Origin: a virus
Virus record (IMG/VR): IMGVR_UViG_3300019926_000104
Coordinates: 1 to 57,981 of that record
DNA: 57,981 bases
Reading direction: 5' to 3' (one strand)
The notes below the pieces were generated by a model. It searched no databases. It was given only the letters and a program-made list of their open reading frames with translations, and was not told where the DNA came from. The position numbers and the translations under genes were made by a program. Positions 1 through 57,981 of this stretch are shown in pieces (positions within the stretch are counted from its first letter, which is position 1; each line of letters starts with the position of its first letter).

Positions 1-99
1 AGATTGGGGAGCCGTTCGCCCACCGACTCTCCCAAGAGTTCCAAGGCAAGCTACAAGGCTACGAATCCGACCTACAGGACCGCGCCGATACGGGAGGTA
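1..99 (+). repeat. Terminal overlap copy 1 (identical to 57883..57981)
   Basis: Base-by-base identity read directly from both window ends. Confidence 0.95.
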
Positions 100-113
100 A
101 CTCGGAACGATGA
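1..113 (+). CDS. 3' end of the wrap-around ORF that starts at 57588; hypothetical acidic protein (about 135 aa in total)
   Basis: The frame of the 57588 ORF is preserved through the overlap. It stops at TGA 111..113, in an ATGA overlap with the ATG at 110. Confidence 0.6.
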   Translation, partial: IGEPFAHRLSQEFQGKLQGYESDLQDRADTGGNSER

Positions 114-505
114 GTGAAAGCGACCGTCTGTTCGTCCCGTTGAACTCAGAACCGTGGTACGCCTTCGAGAGTGACGAGAAGCGGGCAGAGTTCCGCGGCG
201 TCAACGACCAATACAACCGTGACACAGTCTTCGAAGGACGAACTGTTGAACTCCGGCGCGGCTACTCGACTGACGATTCACTCTGGGGAACTATCTCCGA
301 AGTGCAGGTCGGGGACGACCTCGGCGCAATGGTGCAGGAGTGGGGTGACGAACTCCTGTATGGCGACAGGCATCTCGGCGAAGTTGCTGCGTCGGCGAAC
401 GAGCTGGTCGGCGACTACGACATGTACATCGTATTCGGCGTGGATTTGGACACTACCGAGACTGCCCCTTCGCGGACGGATTCGGGAGGAGACGACAGTG
501 AGTAA
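110..505 (+). CDS. Hypothetical acidic protein, possibly ASCH/PUA-like
   Basis: 131-aa ORF, acidic, coupled to both neighbours. Only weak resemblance to the ASCH pattern (KRAEFRG ... TVELRRGYS). Confidence 0.6.
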   Translation: MSESDRLFVPLNSEPWYAFESDEKRAEFRGVNDQYNRDTVFEGRTVELRRGYSTDDSLWGTISEVQVGDDLGAMVQEWGDELLYGDRHLGEVAASANELVGDYDMYIVFGVDLDTTETAPSRTDSGGDDSE

Positions 506-716
506 GCCGGAAGCGGTGTTCCCGATGGAGATAGAGCGTGGCGACCGCGTGGGGCGCTGTCCGGAGTGTGGCCCTGTCGTCCGCGACGACGTAGACATGA
601 CCGGCGTCATCGCCGTCTGTGGCATCTGCGGAGACACGCTGGACAAGTACACTATCGCGTCACACGACACACGTCTCACGCAAGCCGGTTTTGACCCAAG
701 CCGGAGGGAATCGTAA
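498..716 (+). CDS. Small zinc-ribbon protein
   Basis: CPECG ... CGICG pairs. GTG 498 overlaps the upstream stop; alternative ATG at 525. Confidence 0.55.
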   Translation: MSKPEAVFPMEIERGDRVGRCPECGPVVRDDVDMTGVIAVCGICGDTLDKYTIASHDTRLTQAGFDPSRRES

Positions 717-1255
717 TGCTACACGTCGACCTGTGCTGTGGGCTCGGCGGCTGGTCCCAGCCGTTCAGGGACGCCGACCGGTGGCGGTCGGTCGGCCTGG
801 ATATTCGTAGCGACCTGAACGCCGACGTCGTGGCCGATGTCCAGGCACTTCCGCTGGACTGTTCGCCCGATCTCCTGACGATGTCACCGCCATGCACGAA
901 CTTCTCCCGCTATTCAATGCCGTGGCTGGACGAACCTGAGCCGGACATGTCGCTCGTTCGTGCGTGCCTGGACGCCGTCGACGAACTGGACCCGGACCAC
1001 TGGGTCATGGAAAACGTGCGCGGCCTCAAACAGTACTGGGGCCGTGAGGAACAGAAGCGCGTCGGCCCGTACTATCTCTGGGGCGACTTCCCGGCCTTCG
1101 ATGTCGTGGTATCGGACGGTGGGAAGATGCAAATCTCAGGGGAGAACCCAGAACAGCGAGCACAGATTCCATACGGACTCGGGGACTCGCTACGGCGGTC
1201 TGTCGAGTGGTCCGGAACTGTCGGAACGTCGGGCGAAAATGTGGAGGAACCATGA
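716..1255 (+). CDS. Short DNA (cytosine-5) methyltransferase-like protein
   Basis: Motif I DLCCGLGGW, motif IV SPPCTNFS, motif VI MENVRGL. At 179 aa no obvious target-recognition domain is visible. Confidence 0.7.
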   Translation: MLHVDLCCGLGGWSQPFRDADRWRSVGLDIRSDLNADVVADVQALPLDCSPDLLTMSPPCTNFSRYSMPWLDEPEPDMSLVRACLDAVDELDPDHWVMENVRGLKQYWGREEQKRVGPYYLWGDFPAFDVVVSDGGKMQISGENPEQRAQIPYGLGDSLRRSVEWSGTVGTSGENVEEP

Positions 1256-1683
1256 CCTCTGGAGAAATCAAAACCGGCAAGAGAATCATGTCGTCACCGC
1301 TCACGGGCCAGCTGTACCTCGTGACGCGGTGGGAAGACCTGGGCGACGGGAAGTTCAAGTCACTGGAAAAAGAGAAGCTTCGAGACCCACCACTCGGCTA
1401 CACACTGCCCGGCATCGAGGGCATGACGTTCCGACCGCGTGGTCCGCTCGGAGACGAGCCAGCAGACGCGCCTGTGACGGCTGCCATCGGATTCTGTCCG
1501 CGGTGTGGGGAGAACGCCCGACTAACCACGGAAGTTCGAGGGACGTTCAACTGCCCCGGTTGTAGCTATCAGTGGCACGACTCCAGAGTAGGCGAGCAGA
1601 CTCGGATGATTGAGGACTATTTCACCACCGCCGATTCCAGCCCTGAACTGGATGAAAATGTGAATGGTGGTAGTAATGACTGA
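1252..1683 (+). CDS. Zinc-ribbon protein
   Basis: ATGA overlap with the upstream stop; CPRCG ... CPGC. Confidence 0.6.
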   Translation: MTSGEIKTGKRIMSSPLTGQLYLVTRWEDLGDGKFKSLEKEKLRDPPLGYTLPGIEGMTFRPRGPLGDEPADAPVTAAIGFCPRCGENARLTTEVRGTFNCPGCSYQWHDSRVGEQTRMIEDYFTTADSSPELDENVNGGSND

Positions 1684-1894
1684 GTGTGACACCTGCGGCG
1701 AGGAGCCGCGTAGGCATCCAGAAACGGGCGCTGTGGTTGGGGCCGTCAGCGTGTACGTCGGTGATGGCGAGTCGTACTGGTTTTGCTCGGACAACTGCTA
1801 CGAATCCCACTGGATAAGCAACGATGTAGATACCCAACAGCAGCGTCTACACGACGTGACCGATAACAACAGTAAGACGGAGGGTTCTGAATAA
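1676..1894 (+). CDS. Small Cys-rich protein
   Basis: CDTCG ... CSDNC; start overlaps the upstream stop. Confidence 0.55.
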   Translation: MTECDTCGEEPRRHPETGAVVGAVSVYVGDGESYWFCSDNCYESHWISNDVDTQQQRLHDVTDNNSKTEGSE

Positions 1895-2067
1895 TGGGCT
1901 TCAACGGAGAAAAATGGTGGTCGTGTCCGAATTGCGGTTCACAGACAAAAGTAGACATTGACGAACAAACTCGCAGCTGCGAGGAATGCGAGTGGTCGGT
2001 CACGATCCCGCACGCCGATTCCCTCGCAGGAGCGGAAGGAAACGGAGGAGACAATGGCGACAACTGA
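1894..2067 (+). CDS. Small zinc-ribbon protein (57 aa)
   Basis: CPNCG ... CEEC. The ATG shares one base with the upstream TAA. Below the ORF-track size cut-off. Confidence 0.45.
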   Translation: MGFNGEKWWSCPNCGSQTKVDIDEQTRSCEECEWSVTIPHADSLAGAEGNGGDNGDN

Positions 2068-2443
2068 CGACGACTGTCCCCGATGTGGGCTCCGGCTTGA
2101 GGAGTCACCAGCTGCCGATGCATCGGTAGAGTGTGAACGGTGCGGGTTCTACGTCTACGAACACGCGGAGGTAGACCTGCCGCCGATGTGGCGCGAAGAA
2201 CCGCAACTGGCTGACCGGCTGGGGCTGTCACGACTGTTCGCACATCTCGACGGGCCGGGTTTCATCGGCGTCCGTGGAGATACTGTCGAGTTGGTCCGCG
2301 CCGACCTGAAGGCAGGCGAAGATGCCGACCCCGAAAAATGCGATATTATCGGCAGAGAGGAGCGAGCAGAGCGTATTAGGGAACTTGCACAGACCTACAA
2401 CGAGGAACGCGCCGGTTCTGGCGATAACTCGGGGGAAATGTAG
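2054..2443 (+). CDS. Zinc-ribbon protein
   Basis: CPRCG ... CERCG; acidic C-terminal half. Confidence 0.55.
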   Translation: MATTDDDCPRCGLRLEESPAADASVECERCGFYVYEHAEVDLPPMWREEPQLADRLGLSRLFAHLDGPGFIGVRGDTVELVRADLKAGEDADPEKCDIIGREERAERIRELAQTYNEERAGSGDNSGEM

Positions 2444-2444
2444 A

Positions 2445-2552
2445 ATGGTCGCTTGTGACTCTTGCGGGGAAGTGAGAGAAATAGACCAGATAGTAAACGC
2501 ATACGACGAGACAGAATACTACTGTCCCGACTGTTCCGAAAACGACGAATAA
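2445..2552 (+). CDS. Zinc-ribbon microprotein (35 aa)
   Basis: CDSCG ... CPDC; starts 2 nt after the upstream stop. Confidence 0.4.
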   Translation: MVACDSCGEVREIDQIVNAYDETEYYCPDCSENDE

Positions 2553-2605
2553 GCGGTTTCTTTTGTAATCTGCTGCGAGAAATCAGCGGTCAGTCTGGCT
2601 CACTA

Positions 2606-4132
2606 TTACCCGAACAGTCGGGCCAAATCGACCGTGGTGCCGCTATCGGTGGTGTCGCCCACTCGTGTCGATTCGTAGCCGCGGGCGGAGCCCTCTACGA
2701 TATGGGTCGCACTTTCCCAGTTGCCGTTTACCTCCTCTAATTCGACCGCGGGGTCCATGTATCGGTTTGCGTCGCTGTGCTGGATCGTCACGTCGATGTT
2801 TAGCTGCCCGATCGGGGCGTCGGCGTCGGTGATCCAAACCGCACGCCGCGGGTTCGCACTGTCAGCCGTGCCGCTGTCGTTGATGGCAACACTTCCGCAG
2901 ATTACGTCACCGCCGCGGATTTCAACAGGGTTAGAACAATGCTCGAAGCTGGCATTATCCATCATCACGACGCCGGGCTGTGAATTGGTCTCCACGATGA
3001 ATCCCCTCGTCCCGTTACCAGAGGTACCCGTGACGGCCCCGCGGAAGATAATGGTCGGGCCACTTACCAACGCGGATGCTCGGAATTGGTCGCCCGTGCC
3101 GGCATCGCGGGAGGTTGCCCGAATGTCCGCCACGGCATCGGAACTGTTCATCTGGAGGAAAACCGGGTACTTCCCAAATTTCTGCCAGTCGCCGTCAACA
3201 ATGGCGGTCCCGTTTAGGACGGGTTTGAAACCATTGAGGTACCCGTTCGTCGTTGTGCCGTCGGCTTCCCCGTCAGGTTGTCCGATGAATCGGCATCCGG
3301 CACCGATATAGAGGTTCCCAAGATCGCCGTTTCCGGTGCTCCGCATGATGAAATACGGGTTCGTGTTCCGGCCGGTGATGGTGTTTCCTCTCCACGTCAC
3401 GTTTCTGGTTTTCAAGGCGCCTAACGGCGTCCTATTTTCGAGAAACGCTGTTTGTGATGACTGTTCGCTGATGTCGATGTTTTTTATCAGAACATTCTCA
3501 AACTCGATCTCTCCCCACTCGTCTACAGTCAGGAAGGCCAGCCCATTGTTCGATAGGTTGGCGAGGTCGAGGGTCAGATCCTTGTACTTTAGCGTAGCAG
3601 AGGGGGCGGCTCCACCCGTTACGAAGTACTGGGCGGCGTCGGTGAATTTCAGTATCGTCCGGTCTCGACCTTGTCCTTCGATTACGGTGGTTTCTGTTGG
3701 CCGGATAGCGTCGGCTCCTTGTGCAATCACCCCTTCCGCCAATTCCAACTTTTGCGGGCCGACACTGGCGTCGAAAGCGGCATTTAGAGTCTCGTCGGTA
3801 TGGACCTGCTGGGTGTTATTGATGGATCCTGTACTGACCGAATTGGCATCCATGCCTTCCGCGAACACATCCACACGATCACCGGGCAGGCCGACGTTTC
3901 CATCTGAATCAGAGGTGTCAGCCGCCGCGCGTGCCTCTCCGATGATTTGGTCTACCGAATAGCCACCAGCCGTAGCCCCAGCACCAAGGGCCACAGCGAC
4001 TTGTAGGACTTGTCGCCGTGTCATACCGCCCTTTTCGGCTATGTCTGCTATGTCCCCGTTGTCCACAAGGTCCACAATCTGTTGCTGTTTCTCACTCGAA
4101 AGAGACAGCAATGGGTTCTCTGCGTTTGCCAT
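2606..4132 (-). CDS. Secreted right-handed beta-helix (pectin-lyase-fold-like) protein with a twin-arginine signal; candidate receptor-binding or depolymerase protein
   Basis: MTRRQVLQVAVALGAGATAGG looks like a Tat motif plus h-region (alternative start 4024). Gly/Asn/Thr-rich periodic beta-strand repeats follow. Confidence 0.6.
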   Translation of the reverse strand: MANAENPLLSLSSEKQQQIVDLVDNGDIADIAEKGGMTRRQVLQVAVALGAGATAGGYSVDQIIGEARAAADTSDSDGNVGLPGDRVDVFAEGMDANSVSTGSINNTQQVHTDETLNAAFDASVGPQKLELAEGVIAQGADAIRPTETTVIEGQGRDRTILKFTDAAQYFVTGGAAPSATLKYKDLTLDLANLSNNGLAFLTVDEWGEIEFENVLIKNIDISEQSSQTAFLENRTPLGALKTRNVTWRGNTITGRNTNPYFIMRSTGNGDLGNLYIGAGCRFIGQPDGEADGTTTNGYLNGFKPVLNGTAIVDGDWQKFGKYPVFLQMNSSDAVADIRATSRDAGTGDQFRASALVSGPTIIFRGAVTGTSGNGTRGFIVETNSQPGVVMMDNASFEHCSNPVEIRGGDVICGSVAINDSGTADSANPRRAVWITDADAPIGQLNIDVTIQHSDANRYMDPAVELEEVNGNWESATHIVEGSARGYESTRVGDTTDSGTTVDLARLFG

Positions 4133-30867: not shown

Positions 30868-31073
30868 AGTTCACCGTTGATGCACTGCTTTACAATCTTG
30901 TGGCACTCACAACACAGTATGTAGTTCTCTCGAAACCAATCCCGAAAGTCCCGATCTCCAATGGCTTCTTCTACCTGTTCGTCGCTGGGGTTCTCTTCCC
31001 AACTGTGTTGCCACCACCTATCTTCCTGAATGTCGATTAGTTGGCCGCATTTGTGGCAGTTTCCGTCCGTCAT
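30864..31073 (-). CDS. Small zinc-ribbon protein
   Basis: CHKCG ... CCECH. Confidence 0.5.
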   Translation of the reverse strand: MTDGNCHKCGQLIDIQEDRWWQHSWEENPSDEQVEEAIGDRDFRDWFRENYILCCECHKIVKQCINGEL

Positions 31074-31438
31074 GCGAACTCTCCCAAGGTACTGTTCTCT
31101 GCTTTGCCCTTTGTTTCCTGCCGATCACGCCAACACTGCTTGTGATAGCACGGTACTGGGTTCCGATTCGAGCTTACGTCTATCAAGTCACCTACACTGC
31201 CGTCCTTGTTGACTACGGTTTCATCTATCCGAAGAGGTTTCCCACACATCGGGCATACGTCGCCCATGTGACGCCCGCTAATTGACCCTGCATCTGGATG
31301 TGACCACGGGTAGTTGTCGTATTCGTCTCGTGGCTCTCCCCACGCATACGGCCCATACTCACGCTTTGGGAACATCTCGGGGATACATTCGGGCCAATTC
31401 TCCGCGTTTAGGTGGGCCGATTCTCTCCAATCGCTCAT
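31070..31438 (-). CDS. Zinc-binding protein
   Basis: CPMCG ... CYHKQC; ATG 31438 overlaps the upstream stop. Confidence 0.5.
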   Translation of the reverse strand: MSDWRESAHLNAENWPECIPEMFPKREYGPYAWGEPRDEYDNYPWSHPDAGSISGRHMGDVCPMCGKPLRIDETVVNKDGSVGDLIDVSSNRNPVPCYHKQCWRDRQETKGKAENSTLGEFA

Positions 31439-34138: not shown

Positions 34139-34612
34139 ATGGCCGATATACAGTATAGTAGAGAGAAAATGCAAAAGCAAAAATCAAAAATGGTCACGTT
34201 TGACCTTCCAGATTACAAGCGAGCCACGCACGACAATATGAATGGCTGCACTGTCGCTGTTGAATACGATAGTAGTTTTGGCGGCAGTCAGACCGTTGAA
34301 GGCGAAGGCGGATTGATCCGAGAGTTAGAACGTGGCCGATTCTACAATTACCTTGTTGTTGGAGATCGGAAGATTAGTTCGGGCCGTGTTTGGTCGGCTG
34401 AAAGTGGTCGCAAAGTCGGAACTGTTGAATCCATCAGCGTTACGATGGAAGCAGACAAGGCGATTGAATGGGTTGCTAAGGACTGGAACGGCCACGATGT
34501 TGACACCCACGACGATGAGATATACGTCCAGTTTTGGTCCGGCCAACTCCACGACGAAATGAGCCAAGAAGAGTTTATGAACCACACTGACGCTATTCGA
34601 TTTGAGAAATGA
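34139..34612 (+). CDS. Hypothetical protein
   Basis: 157-aa ORF, translationally coupled (ATGA) to the integrase. Confidence 0.6.
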   Translation: MADIQYSREKMQKQKSKMVTFDLPDYKRATHDNMNGCTVAVEYDSSFGGSQTVEGEGGLIRELERGRFYNYLVVGDRKISSGRVWSAESGRKVGTVESISVTMEADKAIEWVAKDWNGHDVDTHDDEIYVQFWSGQLHDEMSQEEFMNHTDAIRFEK

Positions 34613-35283
34613 GACTCGACGATTACAACGAGAAAGACGGGAAGCGTGTATGGCTCACGAGCGAAGAAATAGACCTACTCATAGACCAAGCTCAAACAGC
34701 GAAACAACGAATCGCCTTCACACTCGGTGGTAGGGCCGGACTCCGTAGGTCAGAAATAACCAGCGTCACACCCAACGACTTTACCCACGGTCCCAAAGGA
34801 TTCGTGCGCGTGTGGGGAGACTACGCCAAGCGAGACAAGTACCGAGAGGCACCAATCCCAAACGACTTTGAAGCCTTTGTAGACGGCATGACGCAAAGCC
34901 AGCCCCCAGATGCCCCAGTGCTATACAATGCAGAGAACAAGAAGGGGATAGCCGGAACGACCGTCTACAGGTGGGTTCGGCGTGCAGCAGAACGACTTGA
35001 AGCCGAAACCGGAGACTCTGGGTGGTCCTATCTCGACGTTCACGACCTGCGGCGTAGCTGGGGTGGACACCTACTGTGGAACTGTGGGGTTCTTCCCACT
35101 GTCGTTATGGAGTTCGGAGGGTGGGAAGACTACTCTACGTTTGCTGAGCACTACATGGGTGAAATAACTCCAGAAGCTCAGCAGCGCGAGCGTTCAAAAA
35201 TCGACTATGTAGGTGGCGAAACTGAAGAACAAACAATGCCGTTCAATCCACGGTCGCCGGAAATCGGTTCAGCGTATCTCTAA
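34609..35283 (+). CDS. int: Tyrosine recombinase / integrase
   Basis: GLRRSE (Arg), VHDLRRSWG (HxxR), GWEDYSTFAEHY (Trp/His ... Tyr). Confidence 0.85.
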   Translation: MRLDDYNEKDGKRVWLTSEEIDLLIDQAQTAKQRIAFTLGGRAGLRRSEITSVTPNDFTHGPKGFVRVWGDYAKRDKYREAPIPNDFEAFVDGMTQSQPPDAPVLYNAENKKGIAGTTVYRWVRRAAERLEAETGDSGWSYLDVHDLRRSWGGHLLWNCGVLPTVVMEFGGWEDYSTFAEHYMGEITPEAQQRERSKIDYVGGETEEQTMPFNPRSPEIGSAYL

Positions 35284-36500: not shown

Positions 36501-36773
36501 TTAGGAGTAATCGAAAAAGCGAGACGACTTCTTGGCTGCATCAAACACAGTCAGTTTCATATTGTTCTTCTTGGCAAGGCTCTTCGCCCGTGACATGGCA
36601 TCTCGCTTGCTGGTGGCTGTTTCAACAGTGTTCGCACCTTGCTCACGATAGCCCTTTACGATCTTCCAGCCGCCAGGGTCGGCGTTTGGTGTTCGCTGCC
36701 TGTTCTGTGGCACAACGAAATACTCTTTCTCTCGATTGCTTGAACTAGTCCCGAAGTTGGCTCCAAGTCCCAT
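36501..36773 (-). CDS. DUF2188-like protein
   Basis: YFVVPQ ... GGWKIVKGY ... SKRDAMSRAKSLAKKNN ... LTVFD. Confidence 0.55.
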   Translation of the reverse strand: MGLGANFGTSSSNREKEYFVVPQNRQRTPNADPGGWKIVKGYREQGANTVETATSKRDAMSRAKSLAKKNNMKLTVFDAAKKSSRFFDYS

Positions 36774-36812
36774 ACACAGGGATTGGTGGGCTTCTGCAAA
36801 AAGTTTTGGCTG

Positions 36813-37562
36813 TTAGAGGTACTGCGCCATAGTCTGCTGTGCTTGGGACTCATGCCGCATTGTAATGGAATCGCACAAAGTAAGGGCAAGATGCTTACTC
36901 AAGTCCGACCGGACAATTCTACTTCCCTCGCCCGTTCTAATCTCGTAATCCTGCTGTGTGAGGTTCGTATCATAGATTTTCCCATTTATAGCACACTGTT
37001 CCGGCGTGCTACAGTCGATAGATTGCACCATACCAGGATTCCGGGCAAGGTAGTCCATCAGTTTTGGATTCGCCCCAACACCGAGAAGATGGACATACGG
37101 CCCACTACCCACACTGTCCCTGAATTTCTGAATTGCGTCTATAATCTCATCAGACTGCCACCCGAAGGCCATACCACCCAAGAGATAGTGATAGTGACCG
37201 GGCAAATCATTGTAGTGCTCATGATGTGGCGGTTGGAGTGGAACCAAGGGCGTAGCTCGGCAGGAATGGTCTTCCCACTCTGTTAGAAACGCTTTGACCG
37301 AGGGCGTAGTAGCGTCTTGATCGTGTAGAAAGTCTTTCCCGACGACCATATCTGCATCGTGCTTGTCTGCTAAGTCCAGTACGTCCGTATTCGATACATC
37401 TGGGTTCTTGATTCCAGAGTCCATAATGAGCACGTCGGCAGAGTCGGCTATTTCTTGTGAGACGTGTTCGGGTTTGACTAGTTTGTATGGATACTCATAG
37501 GGCATGTTTGAGGCTACATACACGTCAATTGGACACTTATCTACTCGTGGGTGCTTCGACAT
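36813..37562 (-). CDS. dpdA: DpdA / tRNA-guanine-transglycosylase-like DNA-guanine transglycosylase
   Basis: LIMDSGI (DSG), YLLGGMA, HLLGVGANP, SIDCSTPEQCAINGKIY match the TGT signatures (DSGG, GG, LxGxGxP, FDCxxPTRxAxxG). Confidence 0.65.
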   Translation of the reverse strand: MSKHPRVDKCPIDVYVASNMPYEYPYKLVKPEHVSQEIADSADVLIMDSGIKNPDVSNTDVLDLADKHDADMVVGKDFLHDQDATTPSVKAFLTEWEDHSCRATPLVPLQPPHHEHYNDLPGHYHYLLGGMAFGWQSDEIIDAIQKFRDSVGSGPYVHLLGVGANPKLMDYLARNPGMVQSIDCSTPEQCAINGKIYDTNLTQQDYEIRTGEGSRIVRSDLSKHLALTLCDSITMRHESQAQQTMAQYL

Positions 37563-37600
37563 AATCTTGTTCTAATGTTGTGCTTGTGGTTACTTCAGCT

Positions 37601-38104
37601 TTACTTGAACGAACCCAACGAACTGTTTTCAAGAGCCGCTGTTTTCTCTGTGAGTGTCGCTTTCCGCTGTCCAATGCCCTCACCACGGCAGAGTTCTACA
37701 ACGTCGATACCCTGCCGTTCTAATGCCGGAGTGAGTGGGTTGGTGTACTTCTTGCCCGCGATAACTTCCACGACATTCACCCGCTGTGCGGACAGTTCAA
37801 GCGCGATAGACTCAGCCTGTGATTCCGATAGGCCAAACTCATTGTACGGTTCTATCTTATCCTCTGGATGCAATAGCCCGTGTTTGGCAGAGAGAATACG
37901 GTACTTAAGCCCGGTTGCCTCTGCATAGGCTTTCATCTTACAGAAGTAATCAGATTCATCGTAGAGGTTCTTTGCACGAGCTGGTGAATCGCGTTTTGAG
38001 TTCGTGCATTGAATCAAAACGTATTTTGTGGGATTGATGATTTGCCCCTGTTCGCCTAATCGCTTTTTGGGCATACTGCTAAGGCCCTCTGGTGGTTCGC
38101 TCAT
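37601..38104 (-). CDS. DUF6884-like protein of unknown function
   Basis: IQCTNSKR ... PARAKNLY ... YRILSAKHGLLHPEDKIEPYNE; alternative GTG start at 38110. Confidence 0.55.
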   Translation of the reverse strand: MSEPPEGLSSMPKKRLGEQGQIINPTKYVLIQCTNSKRDSPARAKNLYDESDYFCKMKAYAEATGLKYRILSAKHGLLHPEDKIEPYNEFGLSESQAESIALELSAQRVNVVEVIAGKKYTNPLTPALERQGIDVVELCRGEGIGQRKATLTEKTAALENSSLGSFK

Positions 38105-38106
38105 TG

Positions 38107-38916
38107 TCACTCCGGCTTGATACGCGGGGCAAGCATGATTTCGCCGTGGTACGTATCATCCCGCTCGAACTCTGCGAACAGTGGGAACTCTTCATCCCAC
38201 CGGAGCGTTAGATCATCGACGTAGCCCACAGACAGGGCCTTCTTCATGTCGTTGACGTAGCCCATGCTGAAATACGTATACTCTGCCACTTCCGTGGGCG
38301 TCACGTCCAATTCAGCCGCTCGTTCCTGAATGTCCGTTTCCTGCTTGAGAACAAGACTCTCAGGCCGAGCGCCAAGTTTGATGTGTTCGGCCCCGTCGCC
38401 AAGTGCATCAAGCACATCAATCAGGGCCTTCGGTGCAAGGTCCGCCGACACATCCAGGTCTAACTCCGGCCACTCTGGTTCTTCGCGGATTGCATCAGGA
38501 TCAATTAGTTCGCTCCGTTCGGACAGGGTAACAGCACAGTCTTCAAATTCCCTGTCAACCTCAGATTCCATCGTTCGGGAATCCGCGCTAATCGTAATTG
38601 CATCGTCACTGGATTTGCCATAGCGTGCGTGTTGGAGTACAGACCCCAACGTTCGGCTGTTGACGCCAATGGTCGTTTCCTCTTTCAGTTCGTAACTCTC
38701 GAAAGCGTCCGCTGGCAGAGTGGCATTGATACCAATCACGTTGGCCGTATCAACACAACTAACCTGAATCCCCTCAGAATCAAAGTGTAGCCGGTATTCG
38801 GCGGCTATCTGATCCAGCATTCGCTTGAACGGACGAATAACCCGCCCGGTCGTTTCGATTTCCACTTGTTCGGTTAGCTGTTCTCCGAAAATCGTCTGCT
38901 GTTGGGCTTCGCTCAT
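38107..38916 (-). CDS. pcn: PCNA sliding clamp
   Basis: 269 aa with a two-domain clamp-like pattern and C-terminal ...IMLAPRIKPE. Confidence 0.8.
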   Translation of the reverse strand: MSEAQQQTIFGEQLTEQVEIETTGRVIRPFKRMLDQIAAEYRLHFDSEGIQVSCVDTANVIGINATLPADAFESYELKEETTIGVNSRTLGSVLQHARYGKSSDDAITISADSRTMESEVDREFEDCAVTLSERSELIDPDAIREEPEWPELDLDVSADLAPKALIDVLDALGDGAEHIKLGARPESLVLKQETDIQERAAELDVTPTEVAEYTYFSMGYVNDMKKALSVGYVDDLTLRWDEEFPLFAEFERDDTYHGEIMLAPRIKPE

Positions 38917-39038
38917 TCCATGTCCTCCTTGATGAGTGTTTGAACGGCTTGGCTCAGGTTGTCCACATCCTGTGCTTCTACTTTGTCGTTTAGGTGCTGG
39001 TACTGCTCTTCTGGCAGGTATAGGGTTTCCGTTGGCAT
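38913..39038 (-). CDS. RHH microprotein (41 aa), first gene of the PCNA-DpdA operon
   Basis: TLYLPEEQYQHLNDKVE ... LSQAVQTLIKE; ATGA overlap with PCNA. Confidence 0.4.
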   Translation of the reverse strand: MPTETLYLPEEQYQHLNDKVEAQDVDNLSQAVQTLIKEDME

Positions 39039-39213
39039 ACTACATACATACAGTATACACACAGTGGCAAAAGTGTTGTGGGACGTTTTGGTTTCACTTT
39101 CACTACGGTAGGCCAACCACTAATATACGGGCGTTCGTGGTATAGAATCCGCTGATTAGGGCCAGCGGGACACAAGCACATTTCTAACAGAGTGTTCTGG
39201 CAGAAGATTTCGG

Positions 39214-40509
39214 TCAACCCGCCCTTTCATGAACAGTATACCAGTCTCCGCATACACCACATGATGTGCCCCTTTGGATTTCGCCTTCATGCCTTGGCGT
39301 GTGCGATTCAACGTTTCCACAGTGTGGGCACTGGTGAGTTTCTTTTACACCAGCATCCAGTTTGCCAGATTGGTGAGCCGCTTTCAACTCTTTATGATAC
39401 GATGTATTATCACCGGAAGTGAGCCAATCCGTGAAAGGTATCTTTCTGGTCAAAGACAGTGTGTTATTATTGCCCTCTGGCGTATAATCAGGCATCGGTT
39501 CAGAAAACCGCTTTTGCCATTCTGAGGACCGCCATTTTTCTTTTCGTGTTTCAACGAACCAGTGTATGGGAAATTTTGCCTCTACCTCTGAGAAGTCCCA
39601 TAGGGGTGTGTAATCATCACTTTCGTCGAACAATTCTTTCCAGTCCTGATCGCGCCAGATTTCTTGAGCTTGTTCATCGTACCACTCGTTAGGAAGTATG
39701 GCATTTACCTCTGGCTCACCCAATTCAGCCTGGCTATTTTCAATATATCTCTCAGATTCCCATTTGGCCCCATTATGCACTGGCTGATTCACACAGCCGC
39801 GTTCGATTATTTGGTTCCACGGCGTCGTTTTCCAGATTTCTTGGGCTTTTTCGTCACACCACTCCGAGGGCAGTGTGGCTGGCGCACCGGATTTTGATAA
39901 GCCCATATTCCACGCCTCTACCCACTTTTTCTTAATCTCAAAATAACCACGGTCGCGCCATGTCTTATGCTTAGGGACTACAGTGGGCCATATCGGACAT
40001 ACTTTACCACCAAACAGGTTTACGTCACTGTCGTTTTCGCTAAACTGTTCACGCCAAAGCCAGACGGTCGAATAGTTTTCTTTGGCGTAGTTCTCTGTCG
40101 TAGCTTCCTTGTCTTTTCCTTTGTTTTCGTGTTGATATTCTATTGCTATCCCAACACCGTACCTTGGGTGTCCGTCTGTGAATTTAATATATGCGTCTGC
40201 AATCCTACCTCCAATCTTCTTTTCTATTCCCCACTCAGAACAGTCAAATTCAACTAATGCCTTGGATAGTGCTACCTCCTTCCTGTGTTCATGTATATCA
40301 GACTCTCCGCCAGATGCAGTGCAGTTAGTTCTATTCCCGTTTGGATTATGGCTAAAGTGTCTTGGTGTGAAAAACCCCTTATCCGTCTCGTATTCTTCTA
40401 CTAAGTGCATTTCGTGTTCCTTTGGTACGCACTTCAGTTGCCCCGATACAGGTTTCTCAATGTCAAAGGGGCGGACAACCTCGCCGTTTAATAAAGCTCT
40501 ATCAGCCAT
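39214..40509 (-). CDS. CoiA-like PD-(D/E)xK nuclease domain, three Trp-rich repeats and a C-terminal zinc ribbon
   Basis: ESDIHEHRKE ... RIADAYI ... IAIEYQHENK; repeats LPSEW..E.AQEIW at aa 209-337; CPHCG ... CGVCG. Confidence 0.6.
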   Translation of the reverse strand: MADRALLNGEVVRPFDIEKPVSGQLKCVPKEHEMHLVEEYETDKGFFTPRHFSHNPNGNRTNCTASGGESDIHEHRKEVALSKALVEFDCSEWGIEKKIGGRIADAYIKFTDGHPRYGVGIAIEYQHENKGKDKEATTENYAKENYSTVWLWREQFSENDSDVNLFGGKVCPIWPTVVPKHKTWRDRGYFEIKKKWVEAWNMGLSKSGAPATLPSEWCDEKAQEIWKTTPWNQIIERGCVNQPVHNGAKWESERYIENSQAELGEPEVNAILPNEWYDEQAQEIWRDQDWKELFDESDDYTPLWDFSEVEAKFPIHWFVETRKEKWRSSEWQKRFSEPMPDYTPEGNNNTLSLTRKIPFTDWLTSGDNTSYHKELKAAHQSGKLDAGVKETHQCPHCGNVESHTPRHEGEIQRGTSCGVCGDWYTVHERAG

Positions 40510-46665: not shown

Positions 46666-46883
46666 GCAAGGTAGACAGTCGTAACCCGGCCAACCTGGAT
46701 AGTGATGATACCTGTTACATCGGACAGCGAACCTCTTACGTGTCGGTTTACCACACGCAAAAGAACTGTCCCGATGTGAAGAACATGAAAAACGGCATCA
46801 AAACGAAAGAATGGGCAATCACCAAACGAATGTCTCTCTCGTGGTGTGAGCGGTGCCAACGACTAGTGGGGAAAGAGCAATGA
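46662..46883 (+). CDS. Small Cys protein (YHT.K.C family, paralog of 47615..47854)
   Basis: VYHTQKNCPD ... CERC. Confidence 0.5.
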   Translation: MSKVDSRNPANLDSDDTCYIGQRTSYVSVYHTQKNCPDVKNMKNGIKTKEWAITKRMSLSWCERCQRLVGKEQ

Positions 46884-47302
46884 CACTACCAACCGACCGA
46901 GAAAGGGCAGAGGAAGCAAAGAAGCGAGCAAACGAACAGTCAACCCGACAGTTCGATATTGTCGGTATCCTGTGTCCGGCGTGTAACGAACCTGCTGCTC
47001 CCGGCGACCCGGACCCAAATGAGTACGTTCACAAAGAGACAGACGGCGGGTTCACCAACGACCGGGCGGCCTTTGAAATCTCACCAAAGCATATTCTGGA
47101 ACACGGGCATGAAAACCCGTGGAACGAGATTCACGTTGTTCCCGAAGCCGTTGAAATGGACGGCGAACAGGAATTGAAGGTGATAGCCTACAAGCACGAC
47201 CACAGTAGCGAAGCCTATCAAGCCTGGAAAGAACAATTAGAAGAGTTAGAGACGGTTGAACGGCGTGCATCGGAAAACCAAGGATTAGGCGATTTTGTAT
47301 GA
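46880..47302 (+). CDS. Hypothetical acidic protein
   Basis: ATGA overlap; CPAC. Confidence 0.55.
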   Translation: MTLPTDRERAEEAKKRANEQSTRQFDIVGILCPACNEPAAPGDPDPNEYVHKETDGGFTNDRAAFEISPKHILEHGHENPWNEIHVVPEAVEMDGEQELKVIAYKHDHSSEAYQAWKEQLEELETVERRASENQGLGDFV

Positions 47303-50812: not shown

Positions 50813-51202
50813 ATGAGCAAACAACGAAAAACGTTCACCCTTGATCCAGAAGTGAAGGCGTATCTTGATGCAGAAGGACGCAACGCCTCAGAAACCGTCA
50901 ACCGGCTTGTAAAACTCGATATGGGCGAAGAGGTCGTCAATACCGAGATAATCAAAATGCGGATGGAGATGGAGAAAGACAAGTATGAAGCTGCCGCGCA
51001 AAGGGCGAAAGGACACTTAGAACGGTATAACCAACTCCAATCCAGATTAGAGAATCAACACTCAAAGAAACAGGACAAATTAAAAGAGGCAAGAGAGGCT
51101 ATCGGTGGCAAACATCTTACCGCCGATAACCCAGCGGTCAAGAATTGGGCTGAAAAATGTGACATGACGCCAGAAGAACTCTTGGAGGAACTAGACGAAT
51201 GA
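50813..51202 (+). CDS. VapB-like RHH N-terminal domain plus coiled coil
   Basis: TFTLDPEVKAYLDAEGRNASETVNRLVKLD; ATGA-coupled to MCM. Confidence 0.55.
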   Translation: MSKQRKTFTLDPEVKAYLDAEGRNASETVNRLVKLDMGEEVVNTEIIKMRMEMEKDKYEAAAQRAKGHLERYNQLQSRLENQHSKKQDKLKEAREAIGGKHLTADNPAVKNWAEKCDMTPEELLEELDE

Positions 51203-53319
51203 GATACGAGGATTTCAACCAAGAGGACTTAGAACACATCGTCACGTTCTACAAAAACTACTGTAAGGACAAGATAGGCGAACTGGCCCAGAAGTTCCCA
51301 CAGGACAAAGAAAGCCTCTGGGTTGACGTAGACGGGGCACTGTATCGGTATGATCCCGACCTAGCCGACGACGTAAAACAGAATCCAGAAACGTTCCGAG
51401 AGCTGTTTGAAGAAGCCCTACCGCTGTATGATTTGCCTGTTGATGTTGACCTATCGGATGCTACGGTTCGGTTCCATAACATCAACACGCACCAGAAGAA
51501 GGTAGATGAAATCAGGAACGACGACGTAGACCGCCTAATCTCCATTGACGGGCAAATATCAAAGGCTACGGCTGTGCGTCCGGTCGTGAAAGAAGCCGCC
51601 TATGAATGCACTCGTTGTGGTATCATCACGCGGATGCCCGTAGAAAACGAACTCCAAGAACCACACGAATGCCAGGGCTGTGAACGGCAAGGTCCGTTTA
51701 CCTTCGACTATCACAAGTCCGTTGTTCGTGACCACCAACTAATCAGAGTCACCCAGCCACCCGAAGAGGCTACGAACAGTTCACAGGACGGCGGAGACAT
51801 TGATGCTCACGTAGAGGGCGACTTAGTGGGCTACGCGGATGCAGGGGAGCGAGCGGATGTATCTGGTGTTCTCAAAGCAGACACGGGAGATAACGACAAG
51901 CCAACGCTTGATTTCCGATTCAAGGCCCACGCAATCGACAAGGTAGACGATGATTACAGGGACTTGGAGGTTAACGACCACAAAGACGAGATAGAACAGA
52001 TAGTCAACGACGGAAACCCGTTCGTTGCACTGGCTGAATCTATTGCACCGGGTATCACTGGTGGGGAAGATAAGGACATAGAAACGCCGTGGGGCGAAAC
52101 CTATGATAAGTACTGGTGGATTCGCCTTGCGACTGGTGTTGCTAACCTGTTCGGTTCCTGGCGGCGAGAGAACGGAGATGGAACCTACCAGCGCGGGGAC
52201 AGTCACACACTCCTAATTGGTGATCCATCGACAGGCAAATCTACTATCATGGACTCAGTAACCCAGATAGCCCCACGCAGTGCCTCAGAAAGTGGGAAGA
52301 ACGCAAGTGGGGCAGGGCTTACCGCCGCTGCTGTGAATGATGATTTCGGGGACTCTAATTGGTCGCTTGAAGCCGGAGCACTCGTGAAAGCCCACAACGG
52401 CGTAGCCGCGATAGACGAGATAGACAAAATGGCCCGCGAGGATTTGAATAGGCTACACTCTGCATTAGAACGACAGCGACTAGAGTTCAACAAGGCTGGC
52501 ATAGATGCTACCCTCAAGTGTGAAACCAGTATGCTTGCCTCTGGCAACCCGAAGGGGAGCCGGTTCAACAAGTACGATACCGACCAATCCCAGATTGAGA
52601 TAGTCGAAAGTCTGTTAGACCGCTTTGACCTTGTGTTCACCCTCAAGGACATTCCCGACGAAACCAAGGACCGAAAGATTGCACAGTCGAAGATTGCACA
52701 ACGCTCGGAATCTGGCCTAATCGCAAAGAACGAGCTGGAACCAGATAACCGCTCGGCGGCAAAAGCAGAACTCTCACCAGAGAAGGTCCGGTCGTGGGTT
52801 GCTATGGCCCGGCAGAATGTTCGGCCTGTGATTCGTGACAACGACGTAGCGGAGAAACTGGAAGAGTATTACGTCTCCATTCGGCAGCAGAACGCGGACA
52901 ACAACGACGACGATGAATCACCAGTGCCAGCAACAGCACGGAATCTGGACGGTGTGTTGCGGCTGTCAGAGGCGTGTGCGCGTATGCGTCTGTCCGATGA
53001 AGTGGAAATGGTAGACGCTGAAATGGCTATCGCCCTGGTGAAGGTGAGTCTACAGGACGTTGGCTATGATCCAGAGACAGGCAAGATGGATGCTGATTGG
53101 GCCAACGGTCGGGGTTCATTTTCGCAACAAGAGCGGATGGACAAGATAGAAGGACTCATTAGCGAGCTTGAGGGTGAAGAACCAGCCGGGGAAGATAACC
53201 TTGTCCAAACCGCCGTAGACGCTGGAATTGAACAAGAGAAAGTCATAGACACCATAGAGAAATTGGCCCGCAAAGGCGAGATATACGAACCGAAGACGGG
53301 CTACTATCGAGTTAGCTAA
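51199..53319 (+). CDS. mcm: MCM replicative helicase
   Basis: Zn finger CTRCG ... CQGC, Walker A GDPSTGKST, Walker B AAIDEIDKM, SALERQ, arginine finger DRFDLVF. Confidence 0.93.
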   Translation: MRYEDFNQEDLEHIVTFYKNYCKDKIGELAQKFPQDKESLWVDVDGALYRYDPDLADDVKQNPETFRELFEEALPLYDLPVDVDLSDATVRFHNINTHQKKVDEIRNDDVDRLISIDGQISKATAVRPVVKEAAYECTRCGIITRMPVENELQEPHECQGCERQGPFTFDYHKSVVRDHQLIRVTQPPEEATNSSQDGGDIDAHVEGDLVGYADAGERADVSGVLKADTGDNDKPTLDFRFKAHAIDKVDDDYRDLEVNDHKDEIEQIVNDGNPFVALAESIAPGITGGEDKDIETPWGETYDKYWWIRLATGVANLFGSWRRENGDGTYQRGDSHTLLIGDPSTGKSTIMDSVTQIAPRSASESGKNASGAGLTAAAVNDDFGDSNWSLEAGALVKAHNGVAAIDEIDKMAREDLNRLHSALERQRLEFNKAGIDATLKCETSMLASGNPKGSRFNKYDTDQSQIEIVESLLDRFDLVFTLKDIPDETKDRKIAQSKIAQRSESGLIAKNELEPDNRSAAKAELSPEKVRSWVAMARQNVRPVIRDNDVAEKLEEYYVSIRQQNADNNDDDESPVPATARNLDGVLRLSEACARMRLSDEVEMVDAEMAIALVKVSLQDVGYDPETGKMDADWANGRGSFSQQERMDKIEGLISELEGEEPAGEDNLVQTAVDAGIEQEKVIDTIEKLARKGEIYEPKTGYYRVS

Positions 53320-57587: not shown

Positions 57588-57981
57588 ATGTCGAACGAGG
57601 AAACACAATACAGCGTCATTGACGAAGTCGAACAGCTAAACAAACAGTTCCAGTCCGAAGCGTCCTACGGTGGCGTCTCGCTGAACGGGATTGCTGGCTT
57701 CCACAGCCTGTTCAACCACGACGCTGGTATCAACTTCGCCGGCCACACAGCCCTCCACGCGGCGCTCGATGAGGTGCTGATGGAAGTCGCGCTGGACCCG
57801 GATATTGTCGAACAGAACCACGGCGAGGTGACGCCAGAGGCAATGGCAGAGGATCTGAAAGAACAACTCACGCAGTTCACACAGATTGGGGAGCCGTTCG
57901 CCCACCGACTCTCCCAAGAGTTCCAAGGCAAGCTACAAGGCTACGAATCCGACCTACAGGACCGCGCCGATACGGGAGGTA
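57588..57981 (+). CDS. Hypothetical acidic protein, open at the window end; continues through the overlap to TGA 111..113
   Basis: ATG 57588 with no stop before the window end. Confidence 0.6.
   Translation, partial: MSNEETQYSVIDEVEQLNKQFQSEASYGGVSLNGIAGFHSLFNHDAGINFAGHTALHAALDEVLMEVALDPDIVEQNHGEVTPEAMAEDLKEQLTQFTQIGEPFAHRLSQEFQGKLQGYESDLQDRADTGG
57883..57981 (+). repeat. Terminal overlap copy 2 (identical to 1..99)
   Basis: Base-by-base identity read directly from both window ends. Confidence 0.95.

Follow-up and report, generated by a model that had tools for sequence, protein, structure and literature searches.

Can a mobile element that makes no 7-deazaguanine of its own place such a base in its DNA, and can it do so in step with replication? 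The question is raised by an operon on the minus strand of IMG/VR virus record IMGVR_UViG_3300019926_000104. Positions 1–57,981 of this record, the whole stretch analysed, are called the window. The operon encodes a predicted enzyme of the tRNA-guanine transglycosylase (TGT) fold that resembles DpdA, together with a DUF6884 protein and a PCNA sliding clamp. Modification of DNA with 7-deazaguanine is a known anti-restriction strategy. The original prediction, made from the sequence alone, proposed that base exchange here draws on the host for its 7-deazaguanine and is coupled to replication through the clamp. The most far-reaching reading considered below is that the window enzyme represents a compact DpdA family, has in this element a small DpdC-like partner, and may be recruited to the clamp by a C-terminal PCNA-interacting protein (PIP) box, so that 7-deazaguanine would be laid on nascent DNA behind the replisome. 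As a whole this reading is tentative and falls somewhat short of an even chance; several of its parts stand more firmly. The three genes concerned are:

36813–37562, minus strand: predicted DpdA-like DNA-guanine transglycosylase of the TGT fold, compact (249 amino acids), of the family of gp33 from Halorubrum tailed virus 29 (HRTV-29).
37601–38110, minus strand: DUF6884 protein (PF21818), 169 amino acids from a GTG start (157 from an ATG at 38074).
38107–38916, minus strand: PCNA sliding clamp, encoded by the element, 269 amino acids (NCBIfam NF002222, 7.8e-33).

The signature strings by which the DpdA-like protein was first recognized (IMDSGI, YLLGGMA, VHLLGVGANP and SIDCSTPEQCAINGK) are all present in the 249-residue translation, and the assignment is borne out by both profile and structure comparisons. 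A profile of the family, searched against all Protein Data Bank (PDB) sequences, finds its best match in 7ui4, the DpdA that inserts preQ0 (7-cyano-7-deazaguanine) into DNA (E=2.2e-5). The AlphaFold2 model has a predicted local distance difference test score (pLDDT) of 95.1 and a predicted template modelling score (pTM) of 0.90. The top 50 PDB structures returned for it by Foldseek are all TGT enzymes or DpdA 7ui4 (E=1.6e-9 to 1e-7; TM scores, by query, about 0.6–0.68). Model and matches together place the protein in the TGT-type TIM barrel. In a 58-sequence alignment of the family the invariant positions are D48 (MDSG), D77, Q110, G129-G130, H158, G161, G163 and D183 (IDCSTP). The two aspartates of predicted catalytic function are:

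37419–37421, minus strand: Asp48 of the MDSG motif, invariant in 58/58 sequences, codon verified, predicted general acid/base.
37014–37016, minus strand: Asp183 of the SIDCSTP motif, invariant in 58/58 sequences, predicted nucleophile.

In the DpdA of Salmonella Montevideo, Asp256 is the essential nucleophile and Asp95 the general acid/base (PMC10164549). Profile alignment to 7ui4 sets Asp183 on chain residue D276 and L160 on the stacking residue Leu236. F285 of this alignment is the Phe265 that was mutated in the same study; the tag offset is therefore 20, and D276 is Asp256. Asp48, judged by its motif, would be the counterpart of TGT Asp102 and DpdA Asp95. Both members of the catalytic pair are thus located, Asp183 by profile alignment and Asp48 by motif, and neither a barrel of a non-TGT family nor the loss of a catalytic aspartate was encountered. 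Searches with the single sequence weigh against the assignment, since all their scores lie under the family cut-offs. The Pfam scan returns DUF6610 only, at 19.5 bits against a cut-off of 27, and PF01702, the Pfam TGT family, gives no match at E<=0.1. The NCBIfam Tgt and DpdA models reach E of about 0.03, with 13 bits for NF041059 against a cut-off of 200, so that neither curated threshold (PF01702, NF041059) is reached; the PADLOC DpdA model gives E=0.0011. Among the 58 family members, PF01702 matches 21 at E<=0.01, the best at 1.2e-7.

Which DpdA family is this? Cui et al. 2023 gave the name DpdA4 to archaeal-virus proteins of the DUF6610 family, gp69 of Haloarcula vallismortis tailed virus 1 (HVTV-1) being the prototype, and remarked on singleton DpdA genes in haloviruses (PMC10516641). 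Membership of DpdA4 (DUF6610, PF20314) is rejected for the window protein, which scores the 19.5 bits given above; HVTV1_69 itself matches DUF6610 at 2.7e-56. DUF6610 recognizes 6/58 members of the window family at E<=0.01, against the 21 recognized by Pfam TGT. HVTV1_69 is missed by the hidden Markov model (HMM) of the window family, hhalign of the family against it gives a probability of 0.8%, and tblastn with either protein leads to non-overlapping sets of viruses among the matches listed. DpdA4 proteins, including HVTV-1 gp69 and its Hafunaviridae homologues, resemble the window enzyme in belonging to the TGT superfamily, in their archaeal-virus setting, in their proposed role of 7-deazaguanine insertion and in their occurrence as singletons without synthesis genes, but they form a separate family at HMM level. 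Searched exhaustively with the family profile, 1.84 billion cluster representatives yielded 258 relatives of the window family, about 260 clusters at 50% identity. Homologues of the window protein comprise 102 metagenomic sequences and one cultured relative, HRTV-29 gp33, which is annotated as DpdA (30.5% identity, E=6e-18 by tblastn); the exact sequence is not on record. These comparisons place the window DpdA in a small, separate and unusually compact clade of about 240–320 amino acids.

The source of the base follows from gene content. An exact 99-bp direct repeat at window positions 1–99 and 57883–57981 identifies the window as a complete genome of ~57.9 kb, circular (or terminally redundant), and the absence of precursor genes is therefore valid genome-wide. 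A Pfam scan of 79 open reading frames (ORFs), all of at least 80 amino acids except one of 67, finds no FolE, QueC, QueD, QueE, QueF or YhhQ/Vut_1 gene in the window. The FolE, QueE, QueD, QueC and QueF proteins of HVTV-1 and YhhQ homologues, used as tblastn queries, likewise find nothing there. The earlier observation that FolE, QueC, QueD and QueE are missing thus holds for the complete genome. Haloarchaea make archaeosine via free preQ0. Because the element has neither a preQ0 pathway nor a transporter, the 7-deazaguanine base is probably drawn from the archaeosine precursor pool of the host. Fold, catalytic residues and gene content all back a DpdA-type enzyme dependent on host preQ0, as originally predicted. 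The idea is not new, as hijacking of host preQ0 has already been proposed for HRTV-29 by Liu et al. 2021 (PMC8651126).

Independent backing for a 7-deazaguanine role of the family comes from adjoining transporter genes. Genes for the preQ0 transporter YhhQ/Vut_1 lie directly beside family members in nine of 45 loci fetched with the DpdA profile and in one further locus, L053, with Vut_1 matches of E down to 6.5e-43.

YhhQ/Vut_1 genes beside DpdA, among others: L004 10386–11033; L014 43–720; L020 812–1477; L021 488–1135; L038 7484–8284; L053 2820–3494.

Three-gene sets in the orders DUF6884–YhhQ–DpdA and YhhQ–DUF6884–DpdA are seen in L021 and L053.

What might act on the inserted base? The pattern by which the neighbouring 169-residue protein was linked to DUF6884, ILSAKHGLLHPEDKIEPY, is found in its translation, and PF21818 matches at E=1.6e-25 (90.2 bits against a cut-off of 30). 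Its CxxxK motif is CTNSK (37994–38008) and its LSAxxG motif LSAKHG (37877–37894); C35, K39, S74 and G78 are invariant in 34 DUF6884 sequences. HRTV-29 gp32, annotated as 'peroxide stress protein YaaA', is 54% identical to the window protein and lies directly upstream of the HRTV-29 DpdA. Bacterial DpdC, earlier described as DUF328/YaaA-like, is matched by Pfam DUF6884 (bioRxiv 10.1101/2025.02.24.639861). This enzyme converts preQ0-DNA to DNA containing 7-amido-7-deazaguanine (ADG), independently of DpdA and DpdB (PMC10164549). The original prediction took the DUF6884 protein to be an uncharacterised candidate accessory factor. Its association with DpdA is real; the term 'uncharacterised' does not stand, as the domain is that of DpdC.

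The association can be followed from both partners. DUF6884 adjoins DpdA in 12/45 of the loci fetched with the DpdA profile and in 7/18 of the informative ones, in which DpdA has flanks of 400 bp or more to either side. It stands upstream in some and downstream in others, beside DpdA proteins 28–62% identical to that of the window. When the search starts from DUF6884 homologues, the DpdA family is adjacent in 3/4 further long contigs, and L049 and L051–L053 supply additional pairings. Genomic linkage of a DpdC-type protein to the DpdA gene is thus observed repeatedly, and the co-occurrence is real but facultative. The deoxynucleoside of ADG (dADG) is the product expected of such a partner, and a 'mini-DpdC making dADG' is the best single hypothesis for the window protein, of moderate probability on sequence grounds.

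Several points weigh against it. Eleven of the 18 informative DpdA loci have no DUF6884 gene, and loci without one include those of DpdA proteins 70% (L039) and 61% (L048) identical to that of the window. The four PADLOC DpdC models match weakly, over about 65 residues of the core (residues 40–105, E=3e-4 to 0.05), and the best PADLOC match is an uncharacterised candidate, PDC-M57A (1e-17). The models have 310–319 positions, so that similarity does not extend over full-length DpdC; the window protein is half as long, and with only 169 residues it has nothing to match the C-terminal half. NCBIfam gives no match and a sequence search of the PDB finds nothing. Foldseek of the model against the PDB yields generic Rossmann or macro-like matches only, YaaA 5caj not being recovered. 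A profile search with the DUF6884 clade returns halovirus-type DUF6884 proteins only, among 120 listed. Mycobacteriophages and bacterial plasmids without DpdA commonly carry DUF6884 as well, and the role of the domain therefore need not be nitrile hydration.

Short DUF6884 genes are frequent among phages, where cluster-G-like mycobacteriophages account for 101 records and phages of Caulobacter and Burkholderia have them too; plasmids of bacteria and archaea add 173 cases. In three neighbourhoods inspected, those of ChaoS9, Caulobacter phage TMCBR2 and a Kineococcus plasmid, no DpdA is seen beside DUF6884; the Kineococcus match, considered as a possible dpd cluster with a genuine DpdC, proved not to be a dpd cluster. 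The role of the DUF6884 family in the DNA of mobile elements therefore appears to be a wider one. At the N-terminus of some proteins of the clade, among them the window protein (residues 1–27), P0112 and P0117, is an extension of low confidence that contains the conserved peptide [K/N/D]xRL[G/D]EQG.

Is base exchange tied to the clamp? The PCNA assignment is solid. NF002222 matches at 7.8e-33 over residues 25–267 and Pfam PCNA_N at 4.2e-6, with PCNA_C at 0.0061 (17.2 bits, under the cut-off of 23). The best PDB match, Haloferax volcanii PCNA 3hi8, covers residues 36–267 at 1.6e-16, and the architecture is that of a full-length, two-domain PCNA. Gene order had been the ground for proposing replication coupling, and on this ground the proposal fails. 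No PCNA gene lies near DpdA in the 45 DpdA-seeded loci or in 6 further contigs, and no close relatives of the window PCNA were found in IMG/VR. A conserved PCNA–DUF6884–DpdA order is ruled out; PCNA adjoins this DpdA family only in the window, and the gene-order argument therefore does not generalise.

The C-terminal tails suggest clamp coupling by another route. PIP boxes follow the consensus QxxI/L/MxxF[F/Y] (PMC2737543). Peptides of this kind end both proteins:

36816–36839, minus strand: QQTMAQYL, PIP-box-like peptide, last 8 residues of the DpdA-like protein.
37604–37627, minus strand: NSSLGSFK, PIP-like C-terminal peptide of the DUF6884 protein, a looser match with N for Q.

A search of DpdA for a PIP box, suggested in the original prediction, yields the near-canonical QQTMAQYL at the extreme C-terminus. 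It fits the consensus at Q1, M4 and Y7 but has L at the second aromatic position. In the model it belongs to a tail of low confidence (pLDDT 59) that follows the last long helix. The motif is a property of the family. Among 116 non-redundant DpdA-family tails, 92 (79%) have the pattern [LIMV]xx[FWY] within their final 14 residues; it is found in 20% of shuffled tails and in 25/113 other window proteins. The strict form Qxx[LIMV]xx[FWY] is present in 42/116 (36%), against 1.9% of shuffled tails and 3/113 other window proteins. The logo of the family reads Q-x-[T/G/S]-L-x-A-[Y/F/W]-x, the aromatic residue stands 0–1 residues from the end in 71/92, and the motif is retained in distant relatives (50%-identity representatives). 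The lack of a second aromatic residue in the window tail is in line with the shallower PIP pocket of H. volcanii PCNA and the Met-ending PIPs of its polymerases described by Winter et al. (PMC2737543). The conserved PIP-like tail would therefore support clamp coupling independently of gene order.

The DUF6884 protein ends in ENSSLGSFK. Its pattern N..LG.F occurs three times in the predicted proteome, each time at the extreme C-terminus, with a shuffled expectation of 0.005:

31070–31438, minus strand: protein ending in ENSTLGEFA.
37601–38110, minus strand: DUF6884 protein, ending in ENSSLGSFK.
46880–47302, plus strand: protein ending in ENQGLGDFV.

The shared ENxxLGxF tail may be a docking peptide for the element's own PCNA. 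In the DUF6884 clade, 25/127 proteins have the terminal pattern NxxLxx[F/Y]x, which is seen in 1.8% of shuffled tails, and most other tails keep an [N/H]x[S/T]L core. The three ENxxLGxF proteins are otherwise unrelated, and those at 31070–31438 and 46880–47302 have no Pfam match.

Against recruitment by the clamp it counts that PCNA adjoins the family in the window only, and that the second aromatic PIP position is usually non-aromatic in the family. In about a fifth of the family the motif is missing or reduced to a terminal Q-T-T-L. Nor is it clear in true DpdA4 proteins, for it is absent from gp58 of Halorubrum tailed virus 5 (HRTV-5), and the C-terminus of HVTV1_69 reads ...NVLEF.

Taken together, the operon can be read as a minimal Dpd-like module, composed of DpdA and a DpdC-domain protein, that would use host preQ0 and dock on PCNA. 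Judged from sequence and models, the chances for and against such a module are about equal. (i) The DpdA-like enzyme would remove guanine from double-stranded DNA via a covalent Asp183 intermediate and insert preQ0, a chemistry presumed by analogy with TGT and DpdA. (ii) The preQ0 would be supplied by the archaeosine precursor pool of the host. (iii) The short DUF6884 protein would act on the inserted base, most likely hydrating its nitrile to give dADG, as homology and conserved adjacency suggest. (iv) Both proteins would dock on PCNA, the element's own or that of the host, through their C-terminal tails; this step is proposed from the motif and its conservation. (v) Newly made DNA would then be modified in the wake of the clamp, in the manner of clamp-tethered glycosylases and maintenance methyltransferases. 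The benefit is likely to be protection of the element's DNA from restriction.

Other explanations have been considered for each part of this scheme. DpdA may work as proposed while the DUF6884 protein is a DNA-binding or base-flipping helper, with a DpdB-like role, or an unrelated mobile-element protein with a part in DNA entry, repair or anti-defence; the modification finally present would then be preQ0 as its deoxynucleoside (dPreQ0). Such a function is possible though distinctly less probable than the module. DUF6884/YfjM proteins are expected by the Pfam curators to bind DNA and flip nucleotides (PMC11701544), bacterial DpdA requires its partner DpdB (PMC10164549), and a helper would suit a protein that lacks the DpdC C-terminal half, finds PDC-M57A rather than DpdC as its top PADLOC match and has relatives throughout phages and plasmids without DpdA. 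Many DpdA-family members have no DUF6884 neighbour, and DpdA therefore does not need one. The invariant Cys35 and Lys39 and the LSAxxG motif resemble an active site more than a binding surface, and DpdC is the only DUF6884-type protein with demonstrated activity. For these reasons hydration of the inserted base is preferred. The Q-x-x-L-x-x-[FWY] tail, in turn, might serve oligomerisation or packaging, or might bind the DUF6884 partner or some other protein of the replisome, and the nearby PCNA gene might reflect no more than the coincidence of a replication cluster. This alternative is likewise rather doubtful. It would account for a PCNA adjacency unique to the window, for the seldom aromatic eighth motif position and for the shortened Q-T-T-L endings shared by DpdA, DUF6884 and a recurrent neighbour called 'X' (described below). 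Set against it are the fit of QQTMAQYL to the PIP consensus at Q1, M4 and Y7, its place at the extreme C-terminus after a flexible linker, and the H. volcanii replicative polymerases, which likewise lack the second aromatic residue (PMC2737543). The motif is also kept in DpdA members without a DUF6884 neighbour, and is therefore not a partner-specific tag. Docking on the clamp thus keeps the preference.

Improbable, finally, is a TGT-like protein that has RNA (tRNA) as its substrate or is catalytically inert, so that the element's DNA would be free of 7-deazaguanine. The Foldseek matches of the protein are mostly tRNA-guanine transglycosylases, and Cui et al. could not show DpdA3 or DpdA4 activity in Escherichia coli (PMC10516641). 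Mycobacteriophage Orion has a DpdA yet unmodified DNA, which is explained by a host without preQ0 (PMC6884629). The window protein is a bare barrel of 249 residues, with nothing matched outside the catalytic domain, and among solved structures its best sequence-profile match is the DNA enzyme DpdA. Its catalytic residues are invariant, and its neighbours (a DpdC-type domain, PCNA and DNA methyltransferases) are DNA-related. Hosts of the haloarchaeal kind, as noted, make archaeosine via free preQ0. Action on DNA is therefore retained.

Known systems offer three comparisons. HRTV-29, a tailed virus of the genus Dpdavirus (PMC8651126), carries the same two families directly adjacent and, as in the window, no preQ0 synthesis genes. 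Its gp32 was listed as a peroxide-stress 'metabolic' gene, without link to DpdA (PMC8651126). HRTV-29 differs in being a tailed virus, whereas the window has no recognisable capsid or terminase genes; in its tails, with a DpdA that ends in a shortened ...QTSLGG and a gp32 that has no tail motif; and in having no PCNA gene within 8 kb of the pair. The DpdA/DpdB/DpdC system of Salmonella Montevideo, in which preQ0 placed in DNA by DpdA is turned into ADG by DpdC (PMC10164549), shares with the window a TGT-fold transglycosylase with the same Asp pair and a DUF6884/DUF328-type protein. Unlike the bacterial system, the window encodes no DpdB ATPase and no restriction genes dpdD-K. Its DpdA has 249 residues against a DpdA family model of 406–417 positions, its DUF6884 protein 169 residues against about 310–319 for DpdC, and sequence similarity to DpdA and DpdC is marginal; the PIP-like C-terminal tail is a further difference. 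Archaeal PCNA clients (polymerases, Fen1, NucS, NreA and uracil-DNA glycosylases; PMC2737543, PMC4929162) resemble the window DpdA in the extreme C-terminal Q-x-x-[LM]-x-x-aromatic peptide, which a flexible linker joins to an enzyme that acts on DNA. The clients described in these two papers do not include any enzyme of DNA base exchange or hypermodification, and a full-text search found no literature linking DpdA or 7-deazaguanine with PCNA.

DpdA singletons in haloviruses, the proposed use of host preQ0 by a solitary DpdA, and the chemistry of DpdC are already known. What is new is that HRTV-29-type DpdA proteins appear as a distinct, very small TGT-fold family, separate from DpdA4/DUF6610, and that their commonest partner, so far called 'peroxide stress protein YaaA', carries the DpdC domain. 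Such a partner predicts dADG, not dPreQ0, in these elements. Also new is the conserved PIP-like tail, which suggests how a link between post-replicative base exchange and the replisome might be made in the absence of a DpdB ATPase. If this is true, the enzyme would be the first of the DNA base-exchange type to be tethered to a clamp, and tethering would explain how a 250-residue barrel gains processive access to duplex DNA without a DpdB-like ATPase. Since HRTV-29 is cultured and carries the same gene pair, the points on DpdA, dADG and the tail are directly testable.

All five minus-strand ORFs of the tightly packed operon lie at the coordinates first assigned to them, with 4-bp overlaps at 38913–38916 and 38107–38110 and gaps of 38 and 39 bp elsewhere. 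Searched by blastn against 50,697 phage records, the operon gives zero matches. The two small members and the ORF upstream are:

38913–39038, minus strand: small ORF, 41 amino acids from its ATG (open frame to 39116), candidate ribbon-helix-helix regulator.
36501–36773, minus strand: small basic protein of 90 amino acids, weakly DUF2188-like (PF09954, E=0.015).
39214–40509, minus strand: 431-residue ORF upstream of the operon, with two similar internal segments, …PSEWCDEKAQEIWKTTPWNQI… and …PNEWYDEQAQEIWRDQDWKEL….

The labels first given to the two small ORFs have fared less well than those of their neighbours. The ribbon-helix-helix label is based on sequence pattern, as the ORF of 38913–39116, whose coding part overlaps the PCNA start by 4 bp, has zero matches in Pfam, NCBIfam and PHROGs, to a ribbon-helix-helix family or to any other. 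The DUF2188 label falls under threshold, with 15.9 bits against a gathering score of 22. An ORF 43% identical to that of 38913–39038 lies close to a DpdA homologue in L012, and in L049 a homologue of the 36501–36773 protein (45% identity), itself carrying a weak DUF2188 flag, is likewise found downstream of DpdA. Another, slightly better DUF2188 match (E=9.8e-4) is located elsewhere in the window. The ORF at 39214–40509 has a Cys-rich, zinc-ribbon-like C-terminus and zero database matches.

Recognisable replication and recombination genes of the window are MCM (51199–53319), PCNA and an integrase domain (34609–35283); Hjc, C5-methylase, ParA-type and HNH endonuclease domains are also present. 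No capsid, portal or terminase gene was found among the largest window ORFs with Pfam and PHROGs. The element is a haloarchaeal mobile element, for which virus and plasmid are both possible. Its G+C content is 0.57–0.59 in bases 1–4000, against about 0.50 over the remaining window.

Two further proteins recur beside DpdA in related loci. Homologues of both, of YhhQ and of PAPS reductase were searched for in the window, and none was found.

'X' protein, 226–241 amino acids: L009 87–767; L010 1–627; L024 3–419; L049 9187–9912; L054 12–722.
'c21' protein, 318–355 amino acids: L036 2118–3074; L037 3898–4866 and 6885–7856; L038 6376–7395; L045 10854–11921.

'X' stands immediately upstream of DpdA or DUF6884, has no Pfam match and contains methyltransferase-like strings (…IPCAGTAPAALA…). 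The tail of the L049 'X', …QQTTLTQS, resembles the shortened C-terminal motif of some DpdA and DUF6884 proteins. 'c21', also without a Pfam match, lies immediately downstream of more divergent DpdA homologues. Two copies of DpdA are present in each of L017, where they are adjacent, and L037, where they are about 2 kb apart. In L054 (745–1964) a close DUF6884 homologue is followed by a 245-residue protein that the DpdA-family HMM misses, a possible replacement partner.

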